Below, in pieces: positions 24,425 through 44,036 of a stretch of DNA of 64,000 nt. Position 1 is the stretch's first letter, and every line of letters starts with the position of its first letter. The position numbers were made by a program, and so were the translations under genes. The notes beneath the pieces were generated by a model, which worked only from the letters and a program-made list of their open reading frames with translations, did not search any database and was not told the DNA's origin. Origin of the DNA: a virus; IMG/VR virus record IMGVR_UViG_3300032308_002092, positions 64,001 through 128,000 of that record. One strand, 5' to 3'.

Positions 24425-24700
24425 TTACTTGATTTTCCTAAGACGCAACCTAGTACCTGATGGATTGATTCTCTCGTCTTTCGTTAGCGCACTAGACACA
24501 GCAGAGCTGCAGTACTGTGCAAGCTCTTCCTCGCTAGAGTTCTTCTTCGTTGTCAGCTCGCCTGACTTAAAGACATCAAACAGCTTTTGTGCCACTTGGC
24601 TTTTAAAGCTCTTGTTCTTTAAGAGCTCTTCGTCAATACTAAGCTTGAGCTCTTCTGCTAGCTGGCATACGATTTGATAAATAGCTTCTTTTTGCGACAT
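24425..24700 (-). CDS. Short distant relative of the ribozyme-associated paralog family
   Basis: MSQKEAI...FKSGEL...ELAQYCSSAVSSALTKDERIN aligns by eye with ISGEV...LRSYASSVVANWFNKAPQIN. Confidence 0.55.
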   Translation of the reverse strand: MSQKEAIYQIVCQLAEELKLSIDEELLKNKSFKSQVAQKLFDVFKSGELTTKKNSSEEELAQYCSSAVSSALTKDERINPSGTRLRLRKIK

Positions 24701-24733
24701 GGCAATCTCCTTTGAGGAATGATAAGATCGGAA

Positions 24734-26028
24734 TCATTCGATGTTGTACCCTAGTTCCTTCGCTCGCTTTACGGAAAGGGTTCCTCTCTCTTCTCCAGGT
24801 CGCTTGGTTCGATCTACGCCGTAGCGTTCGAAGTTAACCCACTTGCCATCTAGCTCAGCTAACTGATAAACGATCTGCTGATCGTCGATGAACGAGTGGC
24901 CAACGCCATGCTGTTTAACCAGAGCCTCTACGGTTTCTTTGTATTCCTCGAAGAACCGCTTAACCTCTGCTTTCTTGCGGTCTAGCTCGACTAATTTAAG
25001 ATGCAGTTGTGTTAGTGACATGATCTTCTCCTTTTAGTAGTGTTTCTATAGCTTTCTCGGTCTCGTAGATGTCTATGAACTTCTGGAAGTCTTTTCTGTA
25101 GATTGCAGAGTCGTGCAAGATGAACCAGGAGTATCCCATTGAGCGATCCGAGGATAGCTTGAAAGGACTACCCAAGCACTTGCGTGCGATTCTAACTGTG
25201 CTCAACCAATCTGCGGTAATATTCCTGCACATCCTACCAGCATCTGAGTACTCGCGAAGGGTACAGTTAGATCTAGATCTAATAGTGTTTCTTTTAGCCG
25301 AGGCCTTGTTCTTGACAACTGCATAGCGAAGCATGGTGATGATGTGTTCGCATGTTGTGTCATTATAGAGATTACGCAGATTACAGGGCTGCAAACCGCA
25401 AGACTTGTGCATAACACCTCCGATAGATACTGATGTCTATCGGATCGGGATCTTAATCTTTGATTACTGAGAGGTGTCGTGGCTTGGCTAGCTTGGTGGG
25501 CTCTGGCTTCACTTTGGCTTTAGTGGGTTCTTGCTTTGGCTTGGGCTGAACACGTGGCTTAGTTCCATCCATCACGGACATCGCTTGCTTTAGCTGTGCA
25601 GCTATGACCTCTGACATCTTGGTTGGCTCGCCGTTGAACTGAATCATTGGGTTGTACCCGGAATCGACTGCACGCTGAAGGTGCTCTAATCTCTCTACGT
25701 TAAGATTCATCAGCCTATCTCTAAGGTCGTTCTTATAGAGCGCATGCGAAGCATTTTTGTTAGGTTGCTCTATCTGAGCTAAAAGTTCTTTCATCTCGCT
25801 GTGGCTCTTGTTGGCTGCCTTCATATGTATCTGTGCAGCCTTGGGAACCTCTAGCTCTGCTAGGTGCTCTTTGTAAAAAGCTAGGATGTTGGTCATCATC
25901 CTTAGTACGTATCTGTGCTTGCTTATCTTGCTAGATAGGTAGTACCAGGCTGTGAGAAAACCTAAAGCAAATGAACCAGAGATTAGTAGTGTAACGGCTA
26001 CGGCGGTCTTATCCATGGTTGTGTCCAA
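24734..26028 (-). CDS. Three hypothetical proteins (24734..25021; 24996..25412; 25453..26028 with N-terminal TM)
   Basis: Co-oriented ORFs with SDs. Confidence 0.6.
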
Positions 26029-26036
26029 TCACAACT

Positions 26037-26561
26037 TCAATCGTTGTTCTGCTCATCTTCTTGAACCTTAGAGTACACTAGTGCTGCTAACTCAGCTGTT
26101 GTTAAGCCTGTTTTCTTAAGTCTATCCCTGAATTCTTTTAGCTTCTTGGGGTCGGCATTGTGGCGACCTCTGTTCGCCTTCTCTGGGATATGTCTTGTGT
26201 TATCAGCAGCGTACCCATTTGAGTTTTTCTTACGATCTGGGCTCAGCTTTTCTCCCGCTTTCTTCTCTGCGTTCTCGAAGCTACTTGCCAACTTAGCATT
26301 AGACTCTGATTTGCCTTTGGACTTTGGCGTCGCGGTGCCGTTGCCGTGGTTCTCACGGCGGCGCGCCTGTTGCGCCTTATTCTGGGCCCTTTCCGGGTGT
26401 CCCACTGTCTGCCTGGCTGAGTTGAGCTTCTTCCTACATGCCCCGCATCTGACACCAGGTCCACCACCTGGGACGTCGGTATTGCATCTAACGCACTTAG
26501 ATTTCTCAAGTATTTCGTTTGCCATCTTGTTTATTTTCTCTGAGAGATCTAAGTCGTCCAC
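26037..26561 (-). CDS. Basic protein with CxxC-CxxC, possibly virion-internal
   Basis: GGTATAAT late-type motif upstream; ILEKS and LKKT motifs. Confidence 0.55.
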   Translation of the reverse strand: MDDLDLSEKINKMANEILEKSKCVRCNTDVPGGGPGVRCGACRKKLNSARQTVGHPERAQNKAQQARRRENHGNGTATPKSKGKSESNAKLASSFENAEKKAGEKLSPDRKKNSNGYAADNTRHIPEKANRGRHNADPKKLKEFRDRLKKTGLTTAELAALVYSKVQEDEQNND

Positions 26562-26610
26562 GTGAAACCTCCGATAATAGCTATACTATTATACCACCGA
26601 CACTGCCTCG

Positions 26611-27419
26611 TCAGTCTTGCTCTAAATGCTTGTATTTATTGAGAGTATAAGTTAGGCGCTTCATGATCTCTGTTATCACGGTCTTGAACTCTGAACTAGA
26701 AGATACATCCGCCAATACGTCATAGTATAGGTCAGATTGGTTCTCTATGTGCTTCATCGCTTCTTTCTTTAGTTCTTGCTTTGTTGCGTTCATTCATTAT
26801 CCTCGCGTATAGGTAGTACTCTAAGTATAGAACTCTGTCGAAGTTGTAGCCAAAGGTGTTCTCAAATATCGTCTCTGGCTCTATCAGCTCGAGATCTTTT
26901 AGCATGATGATTAGGGCCATTAATAGGCTTCTGGGTTCGTCTCTATTTAGAACCATTGGTTATCCAAGTTTCATGGACAGATCATCTACTGACTTAAATG
27001 GGATTATACTTCTCTGATCTTGGTCCCAGGTGCATTCGTACACGCGACCGTTGCGAGTCACTACGCCCACCATGAAGCCATTGTCCTCTATATCGGTTAC
27101 TATAGCAATTCGATCGTCTTTCGTGTACCACATGCCTAGCAAATCAAACTCGTCAGGCTCGGTCGGCATGTCTTCAATCACTACATCTAATTCGACTAAC
27201 TTCAGGTGTGAGTACTTCGTGTCTCTCAGATTCATCTAAAACTCCTAGTGGTTTACAAACGTCTTCTAGGAGAAACAACCCACGATACAACATCGACCAT
27301 CCGGTCTCGGTACGGAACTTAAACCAGACGAAGTCATTGACCTCTCCGCCTAGTGGTAGCACTATCTGCTTACCATTCAACTCATAGAGAGACATCGGCT
27401 CCAACATTAAGCCGCTCAT
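26611..27419 (-). CDS. Four small hypothetical proteins
   Basis: Overlapping ORFs 26611..26793, 26732..26956, 26960..27235, 27174..27419. Confidence 0.55.
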
Positions 27420-27870
27420 ACTCCCTCCTCTTCCTCTCGTTGACTATAGCCATGGTTGCTAACTTGTCTGCCATCTCGTTGTACTGGTCACCAGAGTGAC
27501 CCTTAACCCACTTAAACACCAGATCTCTTTGATCTATCATCGATAGGATTTTTACCCAGATATCTTTATGGGCTATTGGATTTCCGTTGGCGGTCTTCCA
27601 GTTTCTCTTGATCCACCCGTCGGTCCAACCTTTGTTTATAGAGTTCACGATGTACTGCGAGTCGGTGTAGACCGTAGTTTTAGTCTTAGGGTCGACACGC
27701 TTTAGGCCTTCGTGTACCGCAGAAAGTTCGCAAAAGTTGTTGGTAGTGTTCTCTGAAACGTATCCGCAGTGTTGAGCCACTTGCCCACTAGGGTAGATTA
27801 TTACACAACCCCACGAGCCCTCTCCGGGATTCGGAGAGCAGGCGCCGTCGGTGTAAAGCAGTATCGTCAT
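27382..27870 (-). CDS. rnhA: Ribonuclease HI
   Basis: YTDGAC..NPG, TTNN.CEL, YTDSQY, WVKGHSG...NEMADKLA. Confidence 0.93.
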   Translation of the reverse strand: MTILLYTDGACSPNPGEGSWGCVIIYPSGQVAQHCGYVSENTTNNFCELSAVHEGLKRVDPKTKTTVYTDSQYIVNSINKGWTDGWIKRNWKTANGNPIAHKDIWVKILSMIDQRDLVFKWVKGHSGDQYNEMADKLATMAIVNERKRREYERLNVGADVSL

Positions 27871-29174: not shown

Positions 29175-29194
29175 TAATCCTCTAATTGAGATGG

Positions 29195-29344
29195 GTGAAG
29201 GGTGGGAACCGCGTAGCCCAAGCTTCGAACTTGAAGGTACCGTTCCCTCTACGCAACTTAGGCGCGCGTAGCCTATCTAAGAACAACCCGGGGTTTTAAG
29301 TCCTTCGATTCTTAGGGACAGCCTATGCTTTCTTCTCCCCTCAC
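29195..29344 (-). ncRNA. Candidate structured ncRNA (two pseudoknots plus T-loop hairpin)
   Basis: Intergenic; closing stem GUGAGGGG/CCCUUCAC; GUCC/GGAC with CUAAGAA/UUCUUAG; UAGGC/GCCUA with UACGC/GCGUA; CAAG-UUCGAAG-CUUG inside GGGAAC/GUUCCC. Confidence 0.45.
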
Positions 29345-29372
29345 ATATTTGGGGCTTGCACGGACGCATCCG

Positions 29373-29879: not shown

Positions 29880-31183
29880 GGAGCGTCCTTCTTATTATCT
29901 CGTCTGTTATTAGTTTTGCTGCCTCTTTGTGTATCACAGAGTTGTCGCGTGGCACAGTGGTTACCCTATCTATGGACCCACTGGAACTCAATAGCAACAC
30001 ATTCACCTGATCTCCATTGGAGCTTAGTTGTATTACTTTAGCGTAATGGTTTCCGTAGCTGCAGTAAACAAACGGAGAATCTCCATAGCCTTCGCACAAC
30101 CAGAAGTGCCAGTCGTCGCGAAGAAGAGAATTAGGAGGCATAGACACGTCAGGTTTGGTCTTAGGACGAGTGAACACTATTGTGTCTTCACCGTCTAGTC
30201 CTTTGATTGTCTTAATCGATGAATTTGCCATCTTTTATACAATGCCCCCTGAAGTAGTAGCCTTGTTTATCTAGGCACTCTTTTCTGTCTTGATCGATAC
30301 ACGACTTCACCATAAATAGAAACATCACAGAAACTAAGATCGTCAGCGCCAAGCTGTATGCAAACCTTGTCACGTAATTGTCCTTATCCATAGCCTACTC
30401 TTGTTGTGCTTTATTGAGATGGTCGGCAGCTGCTCTAGTCCACTCCACGTAGATTTGATCAGGGTACAGTCTGCCGAACCACGTTATGTCGCAGCCCGGA
30501 GTCCAGAAGTACCAGTTCCAGGTAGGGTGGTCGTTTAGCGCGTTGTTCCTAGCTGCTTTAGATCTGTTTGCTTCTTCTTGTAGCTTTTGCAGATCACCTT
30601 TTAGGTAGTAAAGTACTGCGTCTTCCATGCCTCTTATTGTTTCAAAGGCTTTGAGAACGTGTTTCTCCCATAGTTTACCAACGCCGTGTTGTCTATTGAG
30701 CATCAGCGTAGCATAAACTAAGTTCAACTGGTAGTGCTTGTAGACTGTAAGTGCCTCAATCAAAGCAAGTGGGCCTCTCAACCAATTGAGCAAGAAGTAC
30801 CATATGATGCGCCAGCCAGCAAAGTGCATCTTTAGCTTAAGGGTTGGGATACAGGCTATCAGCTGAGCAAACCCCAGTACTCCCAGCTTGTTTCGGCCAT
30901 CTGTGGACGACGGTGTTATCAGCCCACCAGTTTTAACTACGTATCTAAGCATAAGGATGTGGTCGATGGTTGACCCGCCAAGCATAGCACCTAGGAACAT
31001 GTCCCTGCTAGATGAGTTTGGGTAATCCTTTTGCGCTATTGCCGCTTCTGGGTTGCGCCAGACTCTGCCGTCTCGGTCAATGCACTGAGACACGTATAGA
31101 GATGCTTCGTAGTCGCCAACATGAGAAAACATCCCTGCGTATAGGGTGCTGTCGCCATGTACTTCTTTGTATTTTGGGTTCAT
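29872..31183 (-). CDS. Hypothetical proteins (29872..30231; 30395..31183, 262 aa)
   Basis: Clean ORFs; AGGAGG SD before 31183. Confidence 0.6.
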
Positions 31184-31252
31184 ATATCCTCCTACTCAGG
31201 GTTATACCGAGAGGGTGGGGTGGTGTGGGCGCGCCGTAGCAGTGTCAGGTGT

Positions 31253-31312
31253 AGACTCGTCAGTCGCGTATACAACGCGAGACCAAGAGCGTGGCTACTC
31301 TTGGTTTCGTCT
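31253..31312 (-). ncRNA. Type II hammerhead ribozyme HH-a
   Basis: AGAC-GAAA-CCAAGAG(8)CUCUUGG-UC/-UCGCGU(5)ACGCGA-CUGACGA-GUCU; GUC cleavage between 31281 and 31280. Confidence 0.92.
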
Positions 31313-31819
31313 TTAGCCAACCAAAGCCCTAAGGTGCTCTGGGATTGAGGAGAGGTCGAGTTGCTTTGCTTTGTTTTGGCGAGGGGTCTTAGCTGGCTTG
31401 CTAGCTACCATCTCAGCCCTAACATTAGCAATGAAGTTTTTCACTTCAACGATCTTAGTTTCTTCTGCGCCTGAAGCAATAAGATTCTTGAGTACCTCAG
31501 TTGCTTGCTTGATCTGTGGGTTAGTACGGCTACCAGGGTTTTTAGCTTCATACTTGCCGCCGCCGTTGATCTGAGGTGCCTTATTGAACCAGTTAGCTAC
31601 GACGCTAGAAGCGTAAGACCTGAGTGCTTTGTCGTCATCTAGCTTACCAGCCGAGCGCTGTGCCAAGACGACTTCGCCAGAAATGAAGCCTTCAAGCATA
31701 AGGCTAACGATCTCACGACGTTGCTCTTCAGTTACGTACGAAGAAATGGGGGCACTACTATTAAAACTAGAACCAAGGACCTGCTTAGTATACGTTACGA
31801 CCGCTTCATTTTGTTTCAT
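31313..31819 (-). CDS. Ribozyme-flanked paralog A (168 aa, unknown function)
   Basis: Shares RSY..S...NW..K.P..NGG.K...KNPGSR and C-terminal DLS.[IL]PEHL..LVG with 40126 and 43512. Confidence 0.85.
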   Translation of the reverse strand: MKQNEAVVTYTKQVLGSSFNSSAPISSYVTEEQRREIVSLMLEGFISGEVVLAQRSAGKLDDDKALRSYASSVVANWFNKAPQINGGGKYEAKNPGSRTNPQIKQATEVLKNLIASGAEETKIVEVKNFIANVRAEMVASKPAKTPRQNKAKQLDLSSIPEHLRALVG

Positions 31820-31843
31820 GGTAAAACTCCTATATAGAAACAT

Positions 31844-31900
31844 TGACTCATCAGTGCTGGAACCTACCAGCAGATACCCTTGGTATCGGGTATTTCGTCA
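31844..31900 (-). ncRNA. Type II hammerhead ribozyme HH-b
   Basis: UGAC-GAAA-UACCC(8)GGGUA-UC/-UGCUGG(6)CCAGCA-CUGAUGA-GUCA; AUC cleavage between 31873 and 31872. Confidence 0.92.
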
Positions 31901-33936
31901 TTAGTCTATTGCTGCGTAGTCATCTGGGAAGAAGGTTTCTTCTTCCATCTGACGGCTATTGAAGTCTAGCTGCTCATACACATCGTCTTCATAGTCGGAC
32001 AAATAGATATAATCTTGGTTGATTTGCACCGTGTTCACGACCATACCATCGGGCATAACCACGGTTGAATTAGGATCTTGTTGCGAAAGAATCTTAATGA
32101 GTTCTGAAACCAGCATATCAAACCTCCTTTATTTACTTGTGCATATTGATTCGGGAATCATGACCTGAGTGTTAGTCTAGTTCCATCTGGCATCGTCGTA
32201 TAGCTTACGTCGGATGGTAAGGCACTGGTCACTCTAGTGAAGGTTTCTAGTTGCTTGCCTTTACCATCGAACGATCGCGCGCAGCCTGTGCCATCACACA
32301 AGATGAATGAGTCTTGGTTGTAAGTCTGAGCCATGCTCTTCATCAAGTCAAACAACGACCAGCCTATGGTGTTAGGCGAACCACTTACAAGCCAAACATT
32401 CTCCATCTGATCTTTGTAAGATCCTCTGACGTACGTAGTTTTAAACCCATTCATCCTAATGAAGAAGCCTAGCTGCTCATGATCCTGCATATTTCTAATG
32501 TCGTCTTTGTCGCTTTTGTCTGCGGAGATCAGAGCGAAGATAGTATCTAAATCTAGTTTCATGTTAACCCCACTTTCGTTTGTTTGCTAAAACACAAAGT
32601 ACACCAAAGAATAAAGATATTAAGAACTTGAAAAAAGCATACTCAAGATTGCCGTTAATCAAATCAAACCATCCAAATACCTGTAGGAAGATACTTACGA
32701 TAAACAGCGCGATGGCTAAGTTCACTTGCCTCTCCTTACGATCAGGAGGATCGCGGTAATTATTTTCTTAAAAAAGTCAATCATCTTTCTCTCCTTCTTT
32801 TTCTGGGTGAAATTTATCGAGCACCTTAGCGAAGATCATCAGCAGCAGTACTGTTACTGCGAGCCCACCGATTATTGATATCGGTATCGCGACTCCAATA
32901 GCTATAACGTAAAGCAATATACTCATTAGCTAACTTCCTCGCTTTCCTCGTAGATGTACCAGTCATTGGGCTTAAGACTAGCTGTCTTCTGCTCATACTC
33001 GTGTTTGCCGTATGAATACGCGAAGGCTCTGCCGTTCCAAACTATGAACGGAGCTGGGTGATCTTTGTGTGAGATCTTAGCTCCCTTGAGGGCCTCAATC
33101 AATGCTTCTTCTAGAGTCATGATCAGCTCCAATCGTTAGGGTCTTTGTTTTTGCCCTTGACTTCTTCGTAGAAGATAATACAAAGCAATCCCACCATGAA
33201 GATGCCACCAAAGAAACCCGCTATAGAAATTGCAGCCATGAATCCTGTTAATGCTGAGTCCACGATATTACTCTCCTAGTATTTGTTGCTCTATTTGTTG
33301 CGTCATATATTTGTCTAACGTGAACTGAATAACATGGTTGTGAACATCTTTTACCTTTAGATAAACCGAATGAGGTGTTAGATCGCCTCTTGAATTCAGA
33401 TAGCAGTTCGCTACTAGCTTAAAGGAATAAGGGGTTTTTGGATGTTTTATGGTCTTAGATACTGTGGTGTACGACTTACCTTTTCGCTTAGCACACTCTT
33501 TAACAGCATAATGGTAGTGAGAGATAAGGGCGTCTAGGGTAAATTCGCTGCCTTCTACTGGACCCAGGCTTAGGTCTATGATTGTTCTATGCTCTCCAGT
33601 AACCGTAAATAAACACATGTTGCTAACCCCTACTCGTTATCGTTGAATAGTATTGGTTTCGGATACTCACTTAAGGTCTTGTGTCTCTGAGTAGAGAAGG
33701 TGTGACATAGAGTCCATCACCACAAGAGTACTCTGCTTGCCATACTTAGACACCATGTCTGCCTTGAGGGAGCGAAACTCAGCTCTACACTTCTCTCGCT
33801 CTGCGACTTCTCTGAAGTATTGTCTACCCTCGGCGGCCTCGTAGTAAGAGAGATCAGCTATGGATACTATAAATTTTTTGATTAGCTCGCAATTGTAGTT
33901 CATGCAACCTCCAATAAGATATTGGATCGGGATCAC
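31901..33936 (-). CDS. Run of small hypothetical early genes (31901..32116, 32158..32562, 32926..33132, 33268..33618, 33667..~33903 and several <60-aa TM peptides)
   Basis: Co-oriented ORFs, several preceded by the CCGA motif and SD. Confidence 0.55.
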
Positions 33937-34163
33937 CTATCGGATGGGTTGCCGTGGCCGTTATCGCATAAGTCTTCTCCACAGCCAGCGCCACCGCCAC
34001 ACCCATCACCATAACCGTTGCCATCGCCATAGCCATCACCACTAGGGCTGCAATTACTTAAACCACAGCCATAACCATCGCCGCTTTTCTTAATATAGTT
34101 GTCACCATTGGGTCTACCGTAATGGTAACCGTAGCTAAAACCATCTATTTCTAGAGATTCCAC
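33933..34163 (-). CDS. Gly/Asp-rich family member 10
   Basis: LEIDGFS ... PSDR. Confidence 0.82.
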   Translation of the reverse strand: MESLEIDGFSYGYHYGRPNGDNYIKKSGDGYGCGLSNCSPSGDGYGDGNGYGDGCGGGAGCGEDLCDNGHGNPSDR

Positions 34164-34169
34164 GATAGC

Positions 34170-34388
34170 TCACCAATCAGATGGGTAGTGATCGAACCGA
34201 TCTTCGGTGCCACTACCGCAACCATCACCATACTCATCGCTATGTCCATCACCTCTGCCATAACCGTCGCCGTCAGCAGTGCCACCACTTAAACCCCAAC
34301 CATCACCATCGCTGTAAGTATGACTATCGCCGTTGGCCATGCCGTAACGATCGCCGTAACCAAAAGCATCTATTTTTAGAGATTTCAT
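34170..34388 (-). CDS. Gly/Asp-rich family member 11
   Basis: LKIDAFG ... PSDW. Confidence 0.85.
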   Translation of the reverse strand: MKSLKIDAFGYGDRYGMANGDSHTYSDGDGWGLSGGTADGDGYGRGDGHSDEYGDGCGSGTEDRFDHYPSDW

Positions 34389-34408
34389 GGTTTATTCTCA
34401 GTCTGAGA

Positions 34409-34744
34409 TTAAAGCCACTTATTCAAGTCAGCTTTCATCACAAAGATATCCTTACCGAAGATCGTACCAGCTTCGTTTAGCACAGTCTCAGCCTGAGGAC
34501 CTTCGACGCACAGCTGGCCGAGACCCTTGGTCGTACCCCATCGGTGGATGTTGTAGGCGTTGTCAAGCCTGATTCTCTCGCTGGAGAGGCGAGTAACGAA
34601 GCCGATGAATACCCAACCGCGATCCATGACTGCGATGACTAGATCGCCGTTCTCATAGTCAAGCTTAGGCTGAGGTGCGCCTCGCAAAGACTCCTCAACC
34701 TGACTGTTGATTACATAATTACCGAATAACTTACTCTTAGCCAT
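34409..34744 (-). CDS. DUF6948-like phage protein
   Basis: VMDRGWVFIG...LDNAYNIHRWGTTKGLGQL..EGP, recognised from memory; own CCGATA motif and AAGGAGG SD. Confidence 0.7.
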   Translation of the reverse strand: MAKSKLFGNYVINSQVEESLRGAPQPKLDYENGDLVIAVMDRGWVFIGFVTRLSSERIRLDNAYNIHRWGTTKGLGQLCVEGPQAETVLNEAGTIFGKDIFVMKADLNKWL

Positions 34745-34881
34745 AATAAACCTCCTTTGTTTCTGTCTATATTTATATCGGAAATGATACTCTGTGGACC
34801 GTTACAATCCTCTTTCGCTGTTATACATCAGAAATACAATCGCAACAGTGAAACCAAGTATAAGTAGCGCAAATACACTCA

Positions 34882-35097
34882 TTAAGAAATCTCGCTTGCT
34901 TCTACGTATTGGCTGAAGATTTCTGGGTATCTTTGTACGTAACCGTTGTCTTCTAGGAAGTAGTACAGAGCTACACCAGGTGGTACTTCGTCATCGAAGT
35001 TGCTCCGCCAAGCGTAGTCTTCGAAGTCACTCGTAGTTAATCCCGTGACCTTAACACACAGCTTATCTACTTTGTTCATGTAAGACTTGAAAGACAT
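34882..35097 (-). CDS. Hypothetical protein
   Basis: 71-aa ORF. Confidence 0.55.
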   Translation of the reverse strand: MSFKSYMNKVDKLCVKVTGLTTSDFEDYAWRSNFDDEVPPGVALYYFLEDNGYVQRYPEIFSQYVEASEIS

Positions 35098-35155
35098 ACA
35101 AACCCCTTATTGAAGACACCCCATCGTTGGGATATATAATCTGGTTTCGGGATTC

Positions 35156-35350
35156 TCACCAGTCTGATAGATCATCGTAGCCATAACAGTCACCGTAGCT
35201 CTCTCCATCACCATTTCCATAGCCGTATCCGCTACCACTACCGTCGTATTCTGTAATGATGATGATATTAGGGCCTTCAGAGCCGCTGTCGCCGTCACCG
35301 TTATAGTGGCCGTCACCACAACCCCAGCCATCTATTTCTAGCTTGTCCAT
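35156..35350 (-). CDS. Gly/Asp-rich family member 12
   Basis: LEIDGWG ... LSDW. Confidence 0.82.
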   Translation of the reverse strand: MDKLEIDGWGCGDGHYNGDGDSGSEGPNIIIITEYDGSGSGYGYGNGDGESYGDCYGYDDLSDW

Positions 35351-35356
35351 TGCTCT

Positions 35357-35596
35357 TCACTTATCTGACGGGCCGTGATGGCCCTTGCCACTGCCATCTC
35401 CAACAACGAGATCTTGCCCCAGACAATTTAGATCATAACCATAGCCATCGCCATTAGGGAGGCTGTCTCCGTAGCCACAGCCATACCTCTCTCCATCGTA
35501 GCCATAACCATAGTTCCCATGGACACCACTGCCATCGCCGCAGAAGTAACCGTGAAAGCGTCCATAACCTAAGCCGTCTATGTCTAGCTTGTCCAT
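35357..35596 (-). CDS. Gly/Asp-rich family member 13
   Basis: LDIDGLG ... PSDK. Confidence 0.85.
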   Translation of the reverse strand: MDKLDIDGLGYGRFHGYFCGDGSGVHGNYGYGYDGERYGCGYGDSLPNGDGYGYDLNCLGQDLVVGDGSGKGHHGPSDK

Positions 35597-35599
35597 GGT

Positions 35600-35896
35600 T
35601 TATGCTTTACGCTTCTTCTTTTGGCCGTCTTTGATGGCCTGAACCTCTGCTTGGTCAAGCGGGACACCGTGGCGGTACCAGCTATCACCCCACACCGCGC
35701 CGTCTTCCCAGTAGGTTATAGCAGGGCTACCCTCACGATGTAACCTACCTTGGCAATACCAATACTCGGTGTCTACCTTGCCGTCTTCGCTATAGTAGAC
35801 AATGGCAGGGCCATCCACACGATGTGGAACACCCTCCTCCAGGTATCGCTCGGACTCTACCTTACCGTTTTCGTAGTGTTTCTTAACGCACTCCAT
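35600..35896 (-). CDS. MORN-variant / HRxDGPA repeat protein
   Basis: YENGKVESERY..G.PHRVDGPAIVYY and LHREGSPAITYW repeats. Confidence 0.75.
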   Translation of the reverse strand: MECVKKHYENGKVESERYLEEGVPHRVDGPAIVYYSEDGKVDTEYWYCQGRLHREGSPAITYWEDGAVWGDSWYRHGVPLDQAEVQAIKDGQKKKRKA

Positions 35897-35908
35897 AAAT
35901 CTCCTTGA

Positions 35909-36148
35909 TTACCAATCTGAAGGCATGTCATGATCATCACCTGAACCCCAGCCGTTGCCGTGGTTGTAGGACGTATCACCATAGCCAACACCATCGCGAT
36001 AAATTGGGTGATAGCCACGACCATGGAGATCACTGCCACCATTGCCCCAGCCATCCCCACTCGCCATGGAGTATTCACCTTCTCCCTCGCCGTTACCATC
36101 CCACCAACAGTCTGGTGAGCCGTCGCCATCTATGTCTAGCTTTTCCAT
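35909..36148 (-). CDS. Gly/Asp-rich family member 14
   Basis: LDIDGDG ... PSDW. Confidence 0.85.
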   Translation of the reverse strand: MEKLDIDGDGSPDCWWDGNGEGEGEYSMASGDGWGNGGSDLHGRGYHPIYRDGVGYGDTSYNHGNGWGSGDDHDMPSDW

Positions 36149-36155
36149 AAGTTAG

Positions 36156-36422
36156 TTACCAATCTGAGGGTTCTAAATCTTCCCCATCACCAGCACCATC
36201 TCCACCGGTGTCGCCACCAGAACCGTCGCAATAACCATCACCGCCGAGGGTGGTATAACCGCTGCCTCTTCCGTCGCCGGTTCCAGTGCCGCAGTCGCCG
36301 TCGCCATAGCGATCGTCTGGTATAGAGGGGCTATAGCAACCTATACCGCCGTCCCCATTAGGGGACGTTCTGTCTACACCACAACCAAATCCATCCACAG
36401 CGAGCTTGCTTTCTAATATCAC
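36156..36422 (-). CDS. Gly/Asp-rich family member 15
   Basis: LAVDGFG ... PSDW. Confidence 0.82.
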   Translation of the reverse strand: MILESKLAVDGFGCGVDRTSPNGDGGIGCYSPSIPDDRYGDGDCGTGTGDGRGSGYTTLGGDGYCDGSGGDTGGDGAGDGEDLEPSDW

Positions 36423-36434
36423 TTAATATGTCCT

Positions 36435-36668
36435 CTACCAGTCAGAAGGGTCACCCTCAGGCTGTATCTCATGGAATTGGATGAATGTCATAGAATCGGA
36501 TTTTGTGAGTTCGTGTTCGCCGTAGCCATAGCCGTCACCATTTGGTTTGGTTCTGCCTATGAAGCTATCTGGCGTTTTTACGCCCTCTCCAAAGCCGTCG
36601 CCATGTATCCTACCGTATTGACCATAGCCGTAGCCAACTCCGTCTACGATCGTCTCGCCTATCTTCAT
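36435..36668 (-). CDS. Gly/Asp-rich family member 16
   Basis: TIVDGVG ... GDPSDW. Confidence 0.82.
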   Translation of the reverse strand: MKIGETIVDGVGYGYGQYGRIHGDGFGEGVKTPDSFIGRTKPNGDGYGYGEHELTKSDSMTFIQFHEIQPEGDPSDW

Positions 36669-37134
36669 GGGTCCTCATATCCATTAAAGCTGCCCGCCAA
36701 GAAAAGCCGCCCGCCAAGAACGCTATTGAGCTTAACGTAGTTAAACTCTTCTTTTGAGGTTCGCTTAAGTGTTTCAAGCATAAATAGCTTCTTGGCTTCC
36801 TCTGATTCCATCACTTTGATACCATCTACCCAGATGCTGCATTCCGGACTACATATCTCTTCATACCCAGCCTTATATCCAGCAGCGGACACCTCTTCTA
36901 AAGTGAGAGGCTGGTCTTTGATGGCCTCATACATTTCTCGCACCTGTTCATACGACACTTCTGTTTTGCGATGAGGACCCCCAGTTTGTTGAGAGCCGTT
37001 CTCACTACCTCCTTGACCATTATGGGAAACCATTAGGCCCATCACTATAAACGCCGCCGCCGCACCCATTACTTACCCTCCTCTTTCTTACACAACACCT
37101 ATCTTCATAGGTCCTCATATCCATTAAAGCTGCC
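36658..37134. repeat. 37-bp direct repeat (36658..36694 and 37098..37134) flanking ORF 36665..37069
   Basis: cctatcttcatRggtcctcatatccattaaagctgcc, one mismatch. Confidence 0.9.
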
Positions 37135-37405
37135 ACCATTTACGTGGGGTGCGTGGGACACTTGCATGAGGATGCGGCTTTTCTATCTCAAGGTGCCGAA
37201 TGGCTACAACATCAAATAGCTCTATCCCATTCGTGTTGCGACCCTCTTTATCAACGTAAACACAGGAAGCAACCCCCGGAGCAAACAGCACCATTAAATA
37301 AAACGCCGGTGACCAATCAGCGCGTTCGTTGAATTCAACAAACGAACCCACTAGTCCGTTTCTAAGTGTGATCTCGTCCCAAGCCTTTAGTTTTGTAATA
37401 TCCAT
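36665..37405 (-). CDS. Two hypothetical proteins (36665..37069 with N-terminal hydrophobic segment; 37124..37405)
   Basis: GGAGG SDs. Confidence 0.6.
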
Positions 37406-37445
37406 AATGGCCTCCTTTTTATAGTAATTTTAATACACTAATCAT

Positions 37446-37755
37446 TCCCAAACTTCAATCTCACCAGTCAGCTCAACTACCTGAACCGGCTCACCTTAGG
37501 TATCTCAAATACAGAAACATCCTCGTCCCTTAGATTTTCAGTCTTGCCTATGGGAATTCTTATCTCATACAAAACCCCATCGCTACCTGTCACGCGAGTG
37601 TATCCACGTTCTTTCAAGCTTGAGAGCTGCTCCCTCGTGAGGTCCTCAAAGATTTCTATGGGCACAGGTCCTTTGTCTGTCAAGAACCCTTCTTCAATTA
37701 ACCGGTCAATTACTTTAGACATATTACAAACTACTCCCAAACTTCAATCTCACCA
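37446..37755. repeat. 21-bp direct repeat (37446..37466 and 37735..37755) flanking ORF 37477..~37722
   Basis: tcccaaacttcaatctcacca exact in both copies. Confidence 0.85.
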
Positions 37756-37951
37756 CTCCGAAGGGGTCTCCCTTAGTATCCCTGTCTCTTGTACCTGCAA
37801 AATGGGCACCGAACAACAGTCTAACATTACCTTGAGAACCGAAGTCCTCATCAAAGACTGGCAGGCTTCGTCCCATGCCTCACACTCCAACTACATACAG
37901 AACGAAGATCCCTATCAGGATGGCAGCCCAAACCCCAATTAGTATCTCCAT
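37750..37951 (-). pseudogene. Possible decayed 17th Gly/Asp-family gene
   Basis: Ends CCT TCG GAG TGG TGA (PSEW*), preceded by GGA GAC one base out of frame; no intact frame. Confidence 0.35.
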
Positions 37952-37964
37952 AGTCCCTATCCCC

Positions 37965-38440
37965 TTAAAGCAGGCTCAGTATGAAGCCTAGCACCACCAA
38001 GAACACCCAAAGCACCACAGAGTACAAAACAACAGTCAAGTACCATAGCCACAAAGCGGTCATCCCGACTATCTCTCTGAAGCCGGGGATAGACATCAAA
38101 CCGCATACTGCAGCTATAGCCAACACCAGTACGACCACCCTTGCCAGTAAGCGCCGCATAACCCCTCCCCATATCGTGATTCATATACCTTCGGAATATA
38201 ACTCAAGGGTCTGATGCCCACTTCCCACCCCTACTTAAACTTACAGCTCAAACCAGCTTTATTCAGGCCGTTATATCTATAGCAAATCACTTCGCTATTC
38301 TCTAGTCTGTACACACCAAAACCAACCGCCTTAGCTTCGCTAAAGCCATACTCACCGTCAACACCTCCATCAACGTTAGGCTCAGATACCCTAAAAGTAC
38401 ATCCGCTCAATACAATCAATCCAACCACTAGCACCTTCAT
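37965..38440 (-). CDS. Small membrane protein (37965..38159) and small lipoprotein (38231..38440, LSGC)
   Basis: Hydrophobic segments / lipobox; GGAGG SDs. Confidence 0.6.
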
Positions 38441-39470
38441 AAACCCCTCCCCACAATTACCCTACAACTATCCATTATCAATTCGGAATCCCATACCTTA
38501 CCTTCCCCAAACCCTGGGTGGAAGATATAGTAACCGCCGTAACTAACTTATAAACCCCTAAAATAACCTCTTATAACAACCTATACCCACCTATACCCAG
38601 TTATAACTACCTACTAATCCCTATACCCTCAAATACCCTAATCCCCTACGTAACTACTACTATTAGATACACTTAAGTGCCAAAACCTACCGTAACTAAC
38701 ACGTACGTATCACCTTAACCCCATACCATTCCCAACCAACCACCTATACCAGTTAGTAGCACGAAAGGGATAGGGAGTGGACTGGTAGAGTTATAGTGAT
38801 AATGATCCTCACCATTACTATAGGAAAGACATAAAAACTATAGTGATTTAACTAGCCTAGGGCGAGCCTATAGGCAGGTTGTTTCCGCCCACAACTATCC
38901 CTACTCTCGCAACAACATCTCTCACTTGTGGCCACGCCGCGGTAACCTATAGGGTTACAAATCACCACGGTTTTGCCCACCTATAGGTTTACAGGTCGGG
39001 TATCCTGCTCCCTCCTACCCTATCCCTACAGATACCTCCCGGGTGGTTTGCGTGTTGTCCTAGGGGTAAATCGGGTGTCGAGGAAATCATTAGGCTTTTT
39101 GGTAGTTGGGTTGGGAATGGTGCTTTCCCCTAGGGGTAAAATGAGATAGGTGGGTGGCTTTGTTGATATTGCTAGAGATTTTAGTTTCGGGATGATAGGA
39201 GTGAGAGAAGTCCTAGGGAGTTTTGCTCGTTTTAGGGCTTCGGGTGTGGGGCGTAGCAGTGTCAGGTGGTTTGGTGGGGTTGTTGGGCTACGGGGTGGGA
39301 TAATGATATCAGTGAGTTACGGGTGTTTTGGTGGCGCGAGTTGGTGCGCTTAGGGCTGGGGGTTTATATACACTTTTATTTTGTGGTCTTGAGTTGTAGT
39401 TGGGAGAGTAGGATAAGTAGGGTGCGAATTCAAGTTGTTTGGGGGTGGCTATGATAAGCCCGTAGCCCAA
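38441..39470. other. Largest non-coding region, with C-rich to G-rich skew switch; candidate replication origin
   Basis: C/A-rich 38441-38760, G/T-rich 39060-39460; repeated cctata, cgtaacta and cctaggggtaaa. Confidence 0.5.
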
Positions 39471-40012
39471 TCAGACTATATACTCTTCGTCTAGTGGCTC
39501 ATCGTATAGGTGAGCTATGGAGTGCCATGGTCCTGGGACTGTGAAGAGGTCTAAGTTGCCAGAGCGTATAGCGTGAGCCTTAGCCATAGCTTCGTCCATG
39601 TCAGAGTGAGAGGAAACTACCCACGTCACTAGGTTGTGGACTTCGGAATCCACCTTCACGATAGTGTCGAAAGTAGAGTGGTCGTACATCACGAAGTACC
39701 TAATAGGTTGCATAACATAGTCTCCTTACTTAATGGACAAGTTAATGAAGATGAGAGTCATTATCAACAAGAATATAGCCGCTGTGCCTGGATCCATCAC
39801 TCTGTCTCTTCCACGGTTATGGTGTAGGACTTGTCGTACTGGTCCTTCACTATGATGGTGCGCTTAGGTGACCTAAAGCTACCGTCTTCGTTTAAGTCCA
39901 TCTTTATCTCTACGTTCCTGAGCTTTATCTCAGTCGCCTTAGGTATGGCCGCAGTGATCACATGAGTGATATAGTCGCAGTATGCTAATCTCAACCCGCT
40001 TGACTTAAACAT
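39471..40012 (-). CDS. Small hypothetical proteins (39471..39713; 39797..40012)
   Basis: AAGGAG SDs. Confidence 0.6.
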
Positions 40013-40050
40013 AGTCGTTCCTCCTTATATAGGGGATGGTATCGGAAACC

Positions 40051-40113
40051 GGACTCATCAGCATGGCTATCAGCCATGGACCTAGGATCTCGAGCGAGTC
40101 CTAGGTTTCGTCC
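40051..40113 (-). ncRNA. Type II hammerhead ribozyme HH-c
   Basis: GGAC-GAAA-CCUAGGA...UCCUAGG-UC/-CAUGGCU(3)AGCCAUG-CUGAUGA-GUCC; GUC cleavage between 40079 and 40078. Confidence 0.92.
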
Positions 40114-40125
40114 TCGGTTACGGAC

Positions 40126-40572
40126 TTATCCCACCAGGGATCTCAAGTGCTCGGGTAGTGCGGAGAGGTCCACAGTCTTGGCAGCAGACTTAGGCTGTGG
40201 GCGGTTAGCTTCAATGAACGCTTCGAGCTCAGCTGTAACTTCAGATCCCTTAGCGATCAGAGCCGCTTTGAGAGCTAGAGCTTGCTTGAACTCTGGGCTA
40301 CCAGATCGGCTACCAGGGTTCTTGACTTCGTGCTTGACCCCACCGTTGAGGGCAGGTGACTTACGGAGCCAGTTGCTGAGCAGACCTGAAGCGTAGCTTC
40401 GCGCCTTAGCTTCGCTGTACTCCTTGCTCAAGCTGATCTCTCCGTTCATGAGTCCCGCTACGAGCATACCGATTGCTTCCTTGCGTTGCTCACTAGTTAG
40501 GGTGACTGCTTCCGCAGTTACTCCAACGATTGACTGTACGATCTCTACGACTGCCTTTGATTGTGACTTCAT
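40126..40572 (-). CDS. Ribozyme-flanked paralog B (148 aa)
   Basis: RSYASGLLSNWLRKSPALNGGVKHEVKNPGSR; VDLSALPEHLRSLVG. Confidence 0.85.
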   Translation of the reverse strand: MKSQSKAVVEIVQSIVGVTAEAVTLTSEQRKEAIGMLVAGLMNGEISLSKEYSEAKARSYASGLLSNWLRKSPALNGGVKHEVKNPGSRSGSPEFKQALALKAALIAKGSEVTAELEAFIEANRPQPKSAAKTVDLSALPEHLRSLVG

Positions 40573-40590
40573 ATGTAACACTCCTTAATT

Positions 40591-40647
40591 AGACTCATCA
40601 GTGCCAGAACCTACTGGCAGATACCCTTGCTATCGGGTATTTCGTCT
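40591..40647 (-). ncRNA. Type II hammerhead ribozyme HH-d
   Basis: AGAC-GAAA-UACCC(8)GGGUA-UC/-UGCCAG(6)CUGGCA-CUGAUGA-GUCU; AUC cleavage between 40620 and 40619. Confidence 0.92.
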
Positions 40648-40651
40648 TAAG

Positions 40652-40801
40652 TTACCGACAGTAGTGATCGGCGTAGTTGCAGTAGAAGTCATAGACTTCG
40701 TCGTCAGTCCACGAGTCACAAGAGTAGTCTACGTCATCGTTTCCCGCTGCGATCATCTGAGCGAGGATGATGTTCACCGTAGTGCGAAGCGAACCTCTCA
40801 T
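40652..40801 (-). CDS. Unlisted 49-aa acidic peptide (MRGSLRTTVN...DHYCR)
   Basis: AAGGAG SD and CCGATA motif upstream; stop 4 nt before HH-d. Confidence 0.6.
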   Translation of the reverse strand: MRGSLRTTVNIILAQMIAAGNDDVDYSCDSWTDDEVYDFYCNYADHYCR

Positions 40802-40948
40802 ATGAAGCACTCCTTGGTTAATCAACCTTGGTTGGTTGATAGTTATATATGGTATCGGGAAACTGGGGCTGCATCGGATCGTGGGGCCGAGGTGTGGGTT
40901 CGGGTGCTGGGCGTAGCAGTGTCGGGCTTCACGCAGACACCCTCGGTA

Positions 40949-42139
40949 TCACTCCAGACCCTTGCAGGAGCTAGCGTCGTTGCTCTCGTTGGCCTGACAA
41001 GCCACGTACTTCTCGCTGCTTTCCTTGGAGTTAGCCACCGAGATCTCACCTACTACGTTGATGGAGGTGTTGACTACAACTCCGCCCACGATAGCGTACA
41101 CACAGTACAAGACCACTAGTTCGATGCCCATTATAATGCCCCTTATAAACCTTAAAGCCCACTTAAACTGCCATTCTAATAGCTAGAATGGTATTCTAAA
41201 ATCTAGTATGTTATACTTTGCCCTTACCCCGGCAAGTTCTGCTTGTAGTACAAGTCACCCCAGTCGATGTAGAAGTCCTCGACCTTAGCGTGATCCCAAG
41301 CGTCGGACCACAGCTTGATATCCTCGTAGCTATCCATGCTCATCTCCCTGCCAGTCACCAACTTAAAGGCATCGTTCATGAACATATTAGCGTCTACGTA
41401 GTCATGCGAAGCGCACTCATGCTTATGGTTGTGCTTGTTAGCTTCGCATATATCAACCATAGTGGCTAGACCAAGCTCAGCCATCAGTAACTCGGAGAAC
41501 TTTTCTGCTATCTGTTCGTGTAGCTCTACTTCGAAATCCATCGTTCACCCCGGTAAGTTGTCTAGTATAAAGTTAAGCTCTTCTACTACTTCGTCGGAAA
41601 CAGGTTGATCTAGTGCCTCATCAGGTACATCTGGGTAGTATTCCAGCTTGAATTCGTCCCAAGCGAACTGCATTAACTGTCTAAGCGTAAGTTCGTTCAT
41701 TGTCCACCTCTTTCTTCTAAGGCTTGATACACTCGCTTCAGTAGCTCTGTGGGTTCGGTATAGAAATCATCCTTATCTAACTGCACCATATCCAGGTTTA
41801 TCAGCGCCTGACTGAACCTCATATCGGGATAGGTCCTCAAGTAGGTCTCTAGTATCCGTAGTAGCTCCAAGTTAGCATGTAGTCGGACGCTCGTTGGTTG
41901 ACTCATAATAACCTCCTAGTTACATATAGATATAGATTCGGATACGACTATCAGAACCACTCACCCTTTCTTACAATCACCACTCTACTCGCTGTATTGA
42001 CTATCATCGCTCTTCTCCTTCTGCCATCGGAGAAGTATCTCATAGCCTCTTGTAAAGCAGAGAATGAGTGTATAGTCATGAAAGACCGTGCATCAGTTGA
42101 GCCGTGCCAAACCTGAACTTGATACATAATAAACTCCAA
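40949..42139 (-). CDS. Small hypothetical early genes (40949..41131, 41224..41541, 41697..41906, 41951..42139)
   Basis: Co-oriented short ORFs. Confidence 0.5.
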
Positions 42140-42254
42140 TGTGTAAGAGAACTTTGTTATTCTCTTATTAATAATATATAGTTACGGGAATTAAATTCCC
42201 CTGGGCGTAGCAGTGTCAGATAGTGGTATAATACCCTTAGGTTAAGGAGAACAC

Positions 42255-42731
42255 ATGGAAAAGCTAATCAAGCATAGCAACGGGCAGTGGACACTAGTTA
42301 AGGCCAAGGACACTAGTAAGCACGGCAACTTCGGTGGTGGTAACTCCTTTGACGGAGGAGACCAGTATGTCCCCTCTAAAGAGGGTATTGCAGCAAACGC
42401 GGCTAGAGCAGCGGAGCAGAAACGCCTAGAAGCAGAAGCGAGCGCAGTATCGGCTGCACACAAAGATGTAGCCGACAGAGGCGAAGTTCGCCGACGCACC
42501 GAGCCGCCGAAAACCGTAGAAGATCACCCACTACACGGCGAGTTAGTTAATCACTTCAAGAACAAGCATGGGTTGGACCATCACGCTGCGTTTGCTGCGG
42601 CTACTCATGTCATGACTTCGGGCCTCGGCGAAAAGACTCATGAAAGTGACTCAGATAAAGCAGCTACTGGTTCTGGAGCAGCCGAGGCCAAGAAGATCCT
42701 GGCTGGTAAGGTTAAGACCAAGATCTCTTAG
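42255..42731 (+). CDS. Isolated late-type gene, possibly head-internal protein
   Basis: GGTATAAT and AAGGAG upstream; N-terminal MEKLIKHSNGQWTLVKA; Ala/Lys/His-rich. Confidence 0.6.
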   Translation: MEKLIKHSNGQWTLVKAKDTSKHGNFGGGNSFDGGDQYVPSKEGIAANAARAAEQKRLEAEASAVSAAHKDVADRGEVRRRTEPPKTVEDHPLHGELVNHFKNKHGLDHHAAFAAATHVMTSGLGEKTHESDSDKAATGSGAAEAKKILAGKVKTKIS

Positions 42732-42736
42732 TCGTC

Positions 42737-43003
42737 TTATATAAGACCTTGTTCACTCAGTTGCTTCATCAGTGAATCATCATTCTTAGACCCAAAGACT
42801 CTCACTACATCCTCATAATCACATAGTTCATCGGGGTCGTCGTGACATACGAACGCTAGTCCTTCGACTGTCTTCCACACTGAGAACTCATATATGCAGT
42901 GAACTCCTGTCTCTACGTAACCATCAGGTTCAGTGATTGAGCCATCGAACATCTTCCCCGCTTCTAACTCTGCAACAAGTTGATCGACTGTGAACTTACT
43001 CAT
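42737..43003 (-). CDS. Acidic 88-aa protein, paralog of 43080..43346
   Basis: TGVH.IY.F.VW.T.EGL.F.C..DPDE shared. Confidence 0.8.
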   Translation of the reverse strand: MSKFTVDQLVAELEAGKMFDGSITEPDGYVETGVHCIYEFSVWKTVEGLAFVCHDDPDELCDYEDVVRVFGSKNDDSLMKQLSEQGLI

Positions 43004-43020
43004 AGTGACTCCTTAAAGTT

Positions 43021-43080
43021 AGACTCATCAGTGTGACTCTTAGTCACAGACTATCTTCGTTTCGGAAGATAGTTTCGTCT
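43021..43080 (-). ncRNA. Type II hammerhead ribozyme HH-e
   Basis: AGAC-GAAA-CUAUCUUC(6)GAAGAUAG-UC/-UGUGACU(3)AGUCACA-CUGAUGA-GUCU; GUC cleavage between 43049 and 43048. Confidence 0.92.
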
Positions 43081-43346
43081 TATGCGAGACCTACTGCACT
43101 CAGCTGCTGATCAAGAGTGTCGTCTTCCTTATCCTCCTCGAAGAACCGCTTGACATCGTCGTAAGTTAGTATCTCATCGGGGTCTTCAGTGCATATGAAC
43201 CTCAAACCTTCGTCAGTGTCCCACACCTCGAAGTCGTATATGGAGTGAACACCGGTGCTCACGCCTCCGTGTGACAGGAACTCACCTGCAGTTAGTCTAC
43301 CATCGGCGATCGCTTCTTCTAACTCTCTGACTGTGATCTTACTCAT
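43080..43346 (-). CDS. Acidic 88-aa protein, paralog of 42737..43003
   Basis: Shared motif with 42737..43003; GAGGAG SD. Confidence 0.8.
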   Translation of the reverse strand: MSKITVRELEEAIADGRLTAGEFLSHGGVSTGVHSIYDFEVWDTDEGLRFICTEDPDEILTYDDVKRFFEEDKEDDTLDQQLSAVGLA

Positions 43347-43511
43347 GACTTCTCCTCATGTTGTTCACACATTAATAGAATCGGAAAACACACTAATAAA
43401 TATTTAAGTTTTTCAACTCATTTATTTATTAATAATATATAGTTTCGGAAACTATATCCCTGGGCGTAGCAGTGTCAGTGGGTACGGGCACCACGCCCGC
43501 ACCCAACTCAC

Positions 43512-43961
43512 TTAGCCAACCAACTTCTGGAGGTGCTCGGGAAGCGCTGAGATATCCACGGTCTTCTCGGTCTTCACCGGAGCGTTGGCTGCGATGAACA
43601 TCAGGAGCCCAGTAGGAATCTCCTTGCCTTGCTCAGCCAAGTACTTCTTAAGCGCGATCGCTTGCTTGTACTCATTGCTCCCACTTCGTGAGCCTGGGTT
43701 CTTAGCTACGTACTTCACTCCGCCATTCAACTCGGGCGACTTACGTACCCAGTTGTCCAGCAGTCCCACCGAGTAACTCCTCATCTTCTCGGGAGTGTCG
43801 TGCTTAGCCCGAGCACCCGCGCTCATATCAATCTCACCATCAACCAAGCCTTGTGTGATCAGAGTCAAGCACTCTTCTTTCTGCTCCTTGGTCAACTTAA
43901 CTCCGGGAGTAAATCCCTCGATCCCACTCACGATCGCTACGACTGCATCTACTTGCTTCAT
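43512..43961 (-). CDS. Ribozyme-preceded paralog C (149 aa)
   Basis: RSYSVGLLDNWVRKSPELNGGVKYVAKNPGSR; VDISALPEHLQKLVG. Confidence 0.85.
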   Translation of the reverse strand: MKQVDAVVAIVSGIEGFTPGVKLTKEQKEECLTLITQGLVDGEIDMSAGARAKHDTPEKMRSYSVGLLDNWVRKSPELNGGVKYVAKNPGSRSGSNEYKQAIALKKYLAEQGKEIPTGLLMFIAANAPVKTEKTVDISALPEHLQKLVG

Positions 43962-43979
43962 GTAACACTCCTTAAAGTT

Positions 43980-44036
43980 AGACTCATCAGTGCAACCACT
44001 TAGTTGCAGATACCCTTGCTATCGGGTATTTCGTCC
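43980..44036 (-). ncRNA. Type II hammerhead ribozyme HH-f
   Basis: GGAC-GAAA-UACCC(8)GGGUA-UC/-UGCAAC(6)GUUGCA-CUGAUGA-GUCU; AUC cleavage between 44009 and 44008. Confidence 0.92.

Follow-up and report, generated by a model that had tools for sequence, protein, structure and literature searches.

A family of small, unnamed phage proteins and the ribozymes that lie beside its genes are the subject of this analysis, which covers 64,000 nucleotides (nt) of DNA from an uncultured phage. This stretch, hereafter the window, is bases 64001-128000 of IMG/VR record IMGVR_UViG_3300032308_002092; the record has 151,207 bases and is rated 91% complete. Three full-length members of the family are encoded in the window, all on the minus strand: paralog A (31313..31819, 168 amino acids (aa), ATG at 31819 behind AGGAG), paralog B (40126..40572, 148 aa, ATG at 40572 behind AAGGAG) and paralog C (43512..43961, 149 aa, with an all-helical AlphaFold2 (AF2) model at a predicted local distance difference test (pLDDT) score of 85). 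On the same strand there are six elements that we regard as genuine type II hammerhead ribozymes.

Paralog A is preceded by the hammerhead at 31844..31900 (predicted cut after 31873, giving a 53-nt leader) and followed by the one at 31253..31312, which has a CUGACGA core and abuts the stop codon (predicted cut after 31281). For paralog B, the 5' hammerhead is at 40591..40647 (predicted cut after 40620, 47-nt leader) and the 3' hammerhead is at 40051..40113 (predicted cut after 40079). Paralog C has a hammerhead on its 5' side (43980..44036, predicted cut after 44009, with a 47-nt leader that starts with the stem I hairpin), and the next one downstream, at 43021..43080 (predicted cut after 43049), lies between two genes for 88-aa proteins. 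The three family units that the six delimit have 592 nt (A), 541 nt (B) and 960 nt (C plus one acidic 88-aa gene). The layout of every copy is the same, namely stop codon, ribozyme, 5-8 nt, the Shine-Dalgarno sequence AAGGAG and ATG, and each of the three 5' hammerheads ends 19-25 nt upstream of the ATG of its paralog. The hammerhead at 43021-43080 precedes a gene that is unrelated to the family, and its tail sequence is identical to that of the hammerhead leading C.

A strict pattern search returned five type II hammerheads on the minus strand, as compared to 0.31 expected, and a covariance model built from these five matches found the sixth, which is the one abutting the stop codon of A. A structural descriptor gave exactly six in the whole record, where 0.05 would be expected per 151 kilobases (kb). 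The core CUGANGA ... GAAA with a UH cleavage site is present in all six window copies and in all 15 copies from related phages, with C at the free position N7 in one window copy and in several relatives. When these 21 hammerheads are taken together, 99.4% of the cells pair, 13 of the 16 pairs display compensatory change and the covariation score is 0.947, versus 0.226 for shuffled controls and at most 0.107 for slid ones. This covariation supports the expected three-stem topology, in which loops close stems I and III and stem II is open; between orthologous positions in the window and its relatives the stems vary and the cores are fixed. The core (CUGANGA, GAAA and a UH site) and the topology are those of the Rfam family RF02276 (Hammerhead_II). 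The window copies differ from that family in scoring under its curated cut-off, with 40591..40647 the best at 29.4 bits against a gathering cut-off of 37, and in the pseudoknot between loop I and the 3' tail that is typical of the family, which has 3-5 base pairs (bp) at best here, is inconsistent by eye and is not claimed. At the gathering level, Rfam matched nothing in the window or in 40 loci of relatives, the curated model being too strict for these copies.

The three paralogs align over their full length with 37-55% identity and are small and mildly basic, with isoelectric points (pI) of 8.6-9.6; A deviates from the shared motifs at a few positions (NW.NK and QINGG). A genome-wide profile search returned A, B, C and a 91-aa open reading frame (ORF) at 24425-24700 on the minus strand, plus a tail-only match in an 81-aa ORF that is discussed below. 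The 91-aa ORF matches family profile positions 1-81 (E 1.4e-5; 36.5 bits against a profile of 100 family sequences), and so consists of the N-terminal domain without the conserved loop and the C-terminal tail; neither a ribozyme nor a 3' hairpin was found beside this gene. A previous sequence-only reading of the window had proposed three full paralogs with shared motifs, a truncated ribozyme-free relative at 24425..24700 and a hammerhead in the 5' leader of all three paralogs. These proposals are all borne out, and A and B turn out to have a second hammerhead at or just after their stop codons.

In the AF2 model of C (pLDDT 85), residues 1-79 form an acidic helical domain (pI 5.3). It is followed at residues 79-95 by a basic loop, modeled with lower confidence, that contains the most conserved residues of the family (K87, N88, P89, G90, S91, R92 and G94), with the motif K-N-P-G-S-R-x-G nearly invariant. 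After the loop come two helices that form a helical hairpin, a basic linker and a terminal helix with the consensus LD[LV]SALPEHLRKLVG, in which P141 is invariant and L144 is nearly so.

The family is large, phage-only and unnamed, with proteins of about 150 aa. A word-indexed search found 15 family clusters; at 50% identity, an exhaustive profile search found 744, of which 485 have E 1e-10 or better; nearly all members of the larger set have 150-170 aa. We collected 51 family loci from IMG/VR. In the ESM Atlas the nearest clusters are 98-100% viral and consist of hypothetical proteins only, and a tblastn search of 50,697 phage records returned no family member. Five complete relatives, which are myovirus-like and have genomes of 165-177 kb, encode four family copies each, one of which is shortened. 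The combination of three full-length paralogs with a shorter copy is therefore old in this phage group. The shortened copies of the relatives (122-131 aa) have the N-terminal domain and the C-terminal tail and lack the central loop, whereas the window stub is the N-terminal domain alone. Fused or longer family forms were not found, nor was any neighboring gene conserved across the loci. In many distant phages (loci L014, L025, L031, L002 and L039), copies from the same genome are each other's closest relatives in the family tree; in the clade of the window, by contrast, the B-type genes of different phages are orthologs, as are the C-type genes. These two patterns suggest repeated duplication or gene conversion.

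The sequence-only reading had also called the family unknown, and the databases agree. Profiles from Pfam, PHROGs, NCBIfam and PADLOC gave nothing at or near curated cut-offs with the paralogs, and none of the structural-protein families matches them. Foldseek against the PDB gave no match at E 0.001 or better, a wide fold search with VIA-align peaked at Z 5.3, a value within the noise for helical proteins, and the sole return from BFVD was an uncharacterised member of the family itself. These profile and fold searches detected no RNA-binding domain or fold. Two candidate identities were rejected. One source names an 87%-identical relative (P0002) ribosomal protein S18, and neither P0002 nor the paralogs matched S18 in Pfam or NCBIfam at E up to 10. 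A resemblance to the TFIIS N-terminal domain (E 0.2 with a 17-sequence profile) was gone with the 100-sequence profile.

The association of the family with hammerheads extends beyond the window. In every close relative examined (fetched contigs with proteins 46-70% identical to C), a hammerhead is located 11-23 nt upstream of the family gene, at or just after its stop codon, or in both places. Loci L052-L054 and L055 have one hammerhead before a C-type gene and one after a B-type gene, L056-L059 have hammerheads on both sides of a single family gene and L060 has the same layout as C; the hammerhead-bounded interval in relatives contains up to seven genes. Among the 51 distant IMG/VR loci, four have a convincing hammerhead within 3 kb (L002, L039/L040 and L022) and 47 have none. 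In L002 and L039 the hammerhead is 0-4 nt past the stop codon of the family gene, and whole-record scans showed it to be the only one in the records concerned, a complete 172.6-kb genome and an 81-kb fragment. Hammerhead-positive genes fill the clade of the window and two separate tips of the family tree, a distribution that needs at least three changes. In two other loci (L013 2840-2920 and L019 2792-2872), a hammerhead-like stretch with a broken core (GAGA for GAAA, CGGAUGA for CUGAUGA) is directly upstream of a family gene. These stretches, which may be decayed ribozymes, were scored as hammerhead-negative. A model-based RNA genome search missed hammerheads that cmsearch detects in the same records, and its silence was not taken as absence.

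The reverse test gave a different picture. Here, 120 IMG/VR loci (1.05 Mb) were sampled by hammerhead pattern alone. They contained 122 descriptor-valid hammerheads in 72 loci, with two or more in 27 loci, and no family gene was found near any of the 122, even at E 1; as a control, the same pipeline recovered the family in 60 of 60 known loci. The tie between hammerheads and this family is therefore real and recurrent but local, and it is a trait neither of the whole family nor of phage hammerheads overall. The sequence-only reading had presented the family as one tied to ribozymes; this holds as a strong enrichment in the window phage and its close relatives, but not in the distant loci or around hammerheads elsewhere.

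What the family does have in common is a strong hairpin directly after the stop codon. For the family genes of ribozyme-free distant relatives, the folding energy of the 60 nt past the stop has a median of -23.05 kcal/mol (54 genes), as compared to -10.95 kcal/mol for 196 conserved same-strand neighbor genes (p 3.6e-17), and 69% of the family genes are at -20 kcal/mol or below versus 14% of the neighbors. The hairpins of the distant relatives are 10-17 bp long, with a U run after some of them, and many come with a box, GACACTGCTACG, located 33-110 nt past the stop and often directly after the hairpin. Counts of this box in 297 kb of the relatives' loci are 128 for the family strand and five for the opposite one.

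In the window, the same box is the core of a 14-nt sequence, CTGACACTGCTACG, which has eight matches at up to two mismatches, as compared to 0.55 expected. On the minus strand, exact copies are at 43465-43478, 31235-31248, 39252-39265 and 42206-42219, and a copy with one mismatch is at 40912-40925. The copy at 31235-31248 is past the 3' hammerhead of A, and the copy at 43465-43478 is directly past a GC-rich hairpin that follows the stop codon of C (43479..43505, minus strand, -27.5 kcal/mol, z -2.9, no U tract), which is placed where distant members have their 3' hairpin. Since the 3' hammerhead of A and the hairpin of C both have this box behind them, the 3' hammerhead occupies the slot of the family hairpin. 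In this phage group the box is a candidate for an early promoter or a regulatory element. The copy after C also fits a sigma-70-type promoter (CTGACA, 16 nt, TATAGT). Across window positions 30000-46500, matches to sigma-70-type promoters are depleted (7 versus 21.5 expected from shuffles), which would suit a region with a different kind of promoter. Past the 3' hammerhead of B (40014-40050, minus strand) there is a further motif, CCGATACC, about 10 nt and TATATAAGGAGG, that is found again in L059, and CCCGAT[AT] recurs after the boxes in distant relatives.

The hairpin bears on where the message of C ends. The sequence-only reading had placed a GC-rich hairpin, not a ribozyme, just past the stop of C, as is the case, and had added that the next ribozyme would give a 960-nt two-gene unit. 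The predicted cuts after 44009 and 43049 do give exactly 960 nt; however, the family-typical hairpin and the promoter-like box come before the next gene, which favors a C message of about 530 nt. The message may thus end at its own hairpin rather than at the next ribozyme.

The 81-aa ORF mentioned above (10933-11178, minus strand) is unrelated to the family except that it bears the family's C-terminal peptide, LDVSALPDFLKTMV; some homologs of this protein end in LDVSALPEHLRKLVGK, and the family tail LD[LV]SALPEHLRKLVG recurs on the 81-aa family nearly verbatim. The copies of the tail on the two proteins differ at synonymous sites, which implies that the peptide itself is conserved. This shared peptide suggests a common docking site. 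T4 gp43, gp33 and gp55 carry clamp-binding C-terminal tails, and the case resembles them in that unrelated small proteins of one phage end in a short, conserved amphipathic peptide behind a linker that is flexible and basic. It is unlike them in that the sequence of the family tail is not known to match clamp-binding motifs. The 81-aa ORF is conserved in 10 related clusters, with the N-terminal motif YLARGGK and an invariant MDLDEGAHFFSEFK stretch, and its gene overlaps the start of a ClpP-like head protease gene on the other strand. A resemblance to the SutA RNA-polymerase-binding domain PF20661 (E 0.0033 over 15 residues, with 17.2 bits where the cut-off is 29.3; E 0.042 with NCBIfam SutA) is below threshold and is a hint only.

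The window also has genes for a tail sheath and baseplate proteins, for ribonucleotide reductase and for RNase H-like and lysozyme-like proteins, with many further small ORFs. By tail sheath, the closest isolated phage is Myxococcus phage Mx1, at 27.6% identity, and the metagenomes that contain DNA of the window phage are from freshwater and the subsurface; a search of sequencing runs found no RNA sample that contains it. The neighbors of the family genes are small genes, and the tail and baseplate genes are encoded on the opposite strand. The stop codon of a gene for a hydrophobic 41-aa peptide (44037..44162, minus strand) abuts the hammerhead 5' of C, and gene calls place ORFs of 39-48 aa at this position in relatives. 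The 960-nt interval holds a gene for an acidic 88-aa protein (43080..43346, minus strand, pI 4.1), and its paralog (42737-43003, minus strand) is behind the hammerhead, so that the two tandem acidic genes have a hammerhead between them; no family match was found for either. L060 has genes for 96 aa and 97 aa at the equivalent positions. A 158-aa ORF at 42255-42731, which starts MEKLIKHSNGQW, is on the plus strand amid minus-strand early genes, and its relatives in nine loci are likewise on the strand opposite to the family genes.

We propose, with a probability of roughly 0.55, that these genes are stand-alone, hairpin-capped expression units with ribozyme-made ends for a modular early adaptor protein. 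Self-cleavage would free each paralog as its own short message. Each cut would leave one product with a 5'-OH directly on a hairpin and the other with a hairpin that ends in a 2',3'-cyclic phosphate; because type II hammerheads have closed stems I and III, a message would start with its 5'-OH on the stem I hairpin and end with the stem III hairpin and the cyclic phosphate. After the cut only the 4-bp stem II would keep the two products together, and the hammerhead would act as a separator from which both neighbors receive protected ends. Such ends would presumably escape both 5'-end-dependent and 3'-exonucleolytic decay, and a gene uncoupled from its neighbors in this way could be expressed at a high and context-independent level, as with RiboJ. 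The high dose that the sequence-only reading had expected is plausible on this account, given a Shine-Dalgarno sequence in each unit and the hairpin-capped ends. As for the protein, its C-terminal helix might dock on a hub that the unrelated 81-aa protein also uses, and its activity might be carried by the N-terminal domain and the basic loop; both suggestions are weak. The roles in host takeover or anti-defence that the sequence-only reading had offered are speculative.

Two known systems help to place this proposal. Perreault et al. (2011, PMC3088659) described ribozyme-flanked prophage genes, showed cleavage for three arrangements and proposed that long phage transcripts are processed into gene-length messages, the identities of the flanked genes being variable. 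The window agrees with their clusters: the hammerheads are type II, on the coding strand, intergenic and close together, and they bracket one or a few genes. Where Perreault et al. have two or more coding-strand hammerheads flanking single genes or short blocks, the window has six, on the minus strand. It differs in that one family is flanked in every close relative, that the sole hammerhead of each of two distant phages abuts a family gene, that a 3' ribozyme replaces a family-wide hairpin and that cleavage is predicted here from sequence. With RiboJ, protein output increases 2-10 fold and the transcript level about 2 fold (Clifton et al. 2018, PMC6206723). Like RiboJ, the 5' elements of the window are self-cleaving hammerheads just upstream of a ribosome binding site that would trim the upstream context and leave a hairpin-headed leader. 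Unlike them, RiboJ was engineered from the ribozyme of a plant satellite RNA with an added hairpin, whereas here the ribozyme's own stem I would be the terminal hairpin and a second ribozyme would trim the 3' end as well; the effect on expression is proposed here by analogy.

Several points weigh against this explanation. Cleavage, message ends and expression level are predicted from the DNA alone, and the gain in stability is reasoned from RiboJ and from general knowledge of bacterial RNA decay. The hammerheads score under the Rfam gathering cut-off (29.4 versus 37 bits). The adaptor role of the protein, its binding and its activity are only weakly suggested, and the docking idea rests on a single shared peptide. 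Finally, most family members are ribozyme-free and most phage hammerheads flank other genes, so that the link may be partly an inherited arrangement and not a need specific to the protein.

Taken further, the last point would make the hammerhead link meaningless for the protein: operon punctuation would have been inherited, or a portable leader of ribozyme plus Shine-Dalgarno sequence would have been copied, at junctions that adjoin family genes by chance. The 122 hammerheads in 72 other viral loci without a family gene (27 of which hold at least two), the scarcity of hammerheads in distant family loci (4 of 51) and the hammerhead at 43021-43080, which leads an unrelated gene with the same tail sequence as that of C, all fit such a history. 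However, there are three phage records in which every hammerhead adjoins or bounds a family unit, two of them with a single hammerhead; the positive genes occupy at least three separate places in the tree, and the 3' ribozymes sit in the slot of the family-wide hairpin. For these reasons we consider chance adjacency unlikely.

A more elaborate possibility is that the ribozyme-bounded units become circular. By way of the shared GAC/GUC stem II, the ends of a unit would come together again as a chimeric hammerhead, and the reverse reaction or a host RtcB-type ligase would join the 5'-OH to the cyclic phosphate; the resulting circular message would be very stable. The stem II core is the same in all six hammerheads and in those of the relatives, so that such end pairings are possible, the ends of a hammerhead cut are chemically suited to joining, and Perreault et al. 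(PMC3088659) raised the possibility. But these authors sought circular or spliced products in similar arrangements and saw none (PMC3088659), neither RtcB nor an RNA ligase was found encoded in the record, and the rebuilt stem II would be just 3-4 bp across 500 nt or more. In addition, the interval in relatives contains up to seven genes, and it is a hairpin and a promoter-like box, not a ribozyme, that come after C. We therefore regard circularization as improbable. The fuller version, in which the genes are built as doubly hairpin-capped autonomous messages and the flanking hammerheads also rejoin the excised RNA into a circular, translatable message, is a long shot. If true, it would be a bacterial-virus counterpart of the circular RNAs made by ribozymes and would tie a defined job of hammerheads to one protein family.

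The proteins could instead be cargo of the virion, abundant there as internal or ejected proteins, with the shared C-terminal peptide as a packaging address. T4 internal proteins carry a shared targeting sequence, which provides an analogy. That there are several small, mildly basic paralogs (pI 8.6-9.6), that the terminal peptide is common to an unrelated small protein encoded beside a head-maturation protease gene and that the expression signals suggest a high dose would all suit such cargo. Yet the genes have small genes around them, are on the other strand from the tail and baseplate genes and have no match to structural-protein families, which makes this role doubtful at best. Least credible is the suggestion, also from the sequence-only reading, of an RNA-binding protein that acts either on its own transcript, as processed by the ribozymes, or on the ribozymes: its basic, invariant, flexible loop and its place beside ribozymes in this lineage speak for it, but the great majority of members have no ribozyme within 3 kb, hammerheads elsewhere are not accompanied by the family (4 of 51 distant loci and 0 of 122 hammerheads, respectively) and no RNA-binding domain or fold was detected, so that a role on its own RNA is very unlikely.

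The purpose of bacterial and phage hammerheads is an open question, their gene associations being known yet unexplained (PMC6765202). Ribozyme punctuation of phage genes was already described in 2011, and what the window contains is a local variant of it, in which the punctuated genes belong to a phage protein family that is new, uncharacterised and defined here. It is a clean case, in which a phage-only family normally has a strong 3' hairpin and one lineage has ribozymes exactly at both predicted message ends. This leads to the testable idea that type II hammerheads may be natural insulators and end-makers that replace terminator hairpins. A large, unnamed phage family is now defined as well, and its invariant loop, together with the tail that it shares with a second family, would provide a handle for a partner search.

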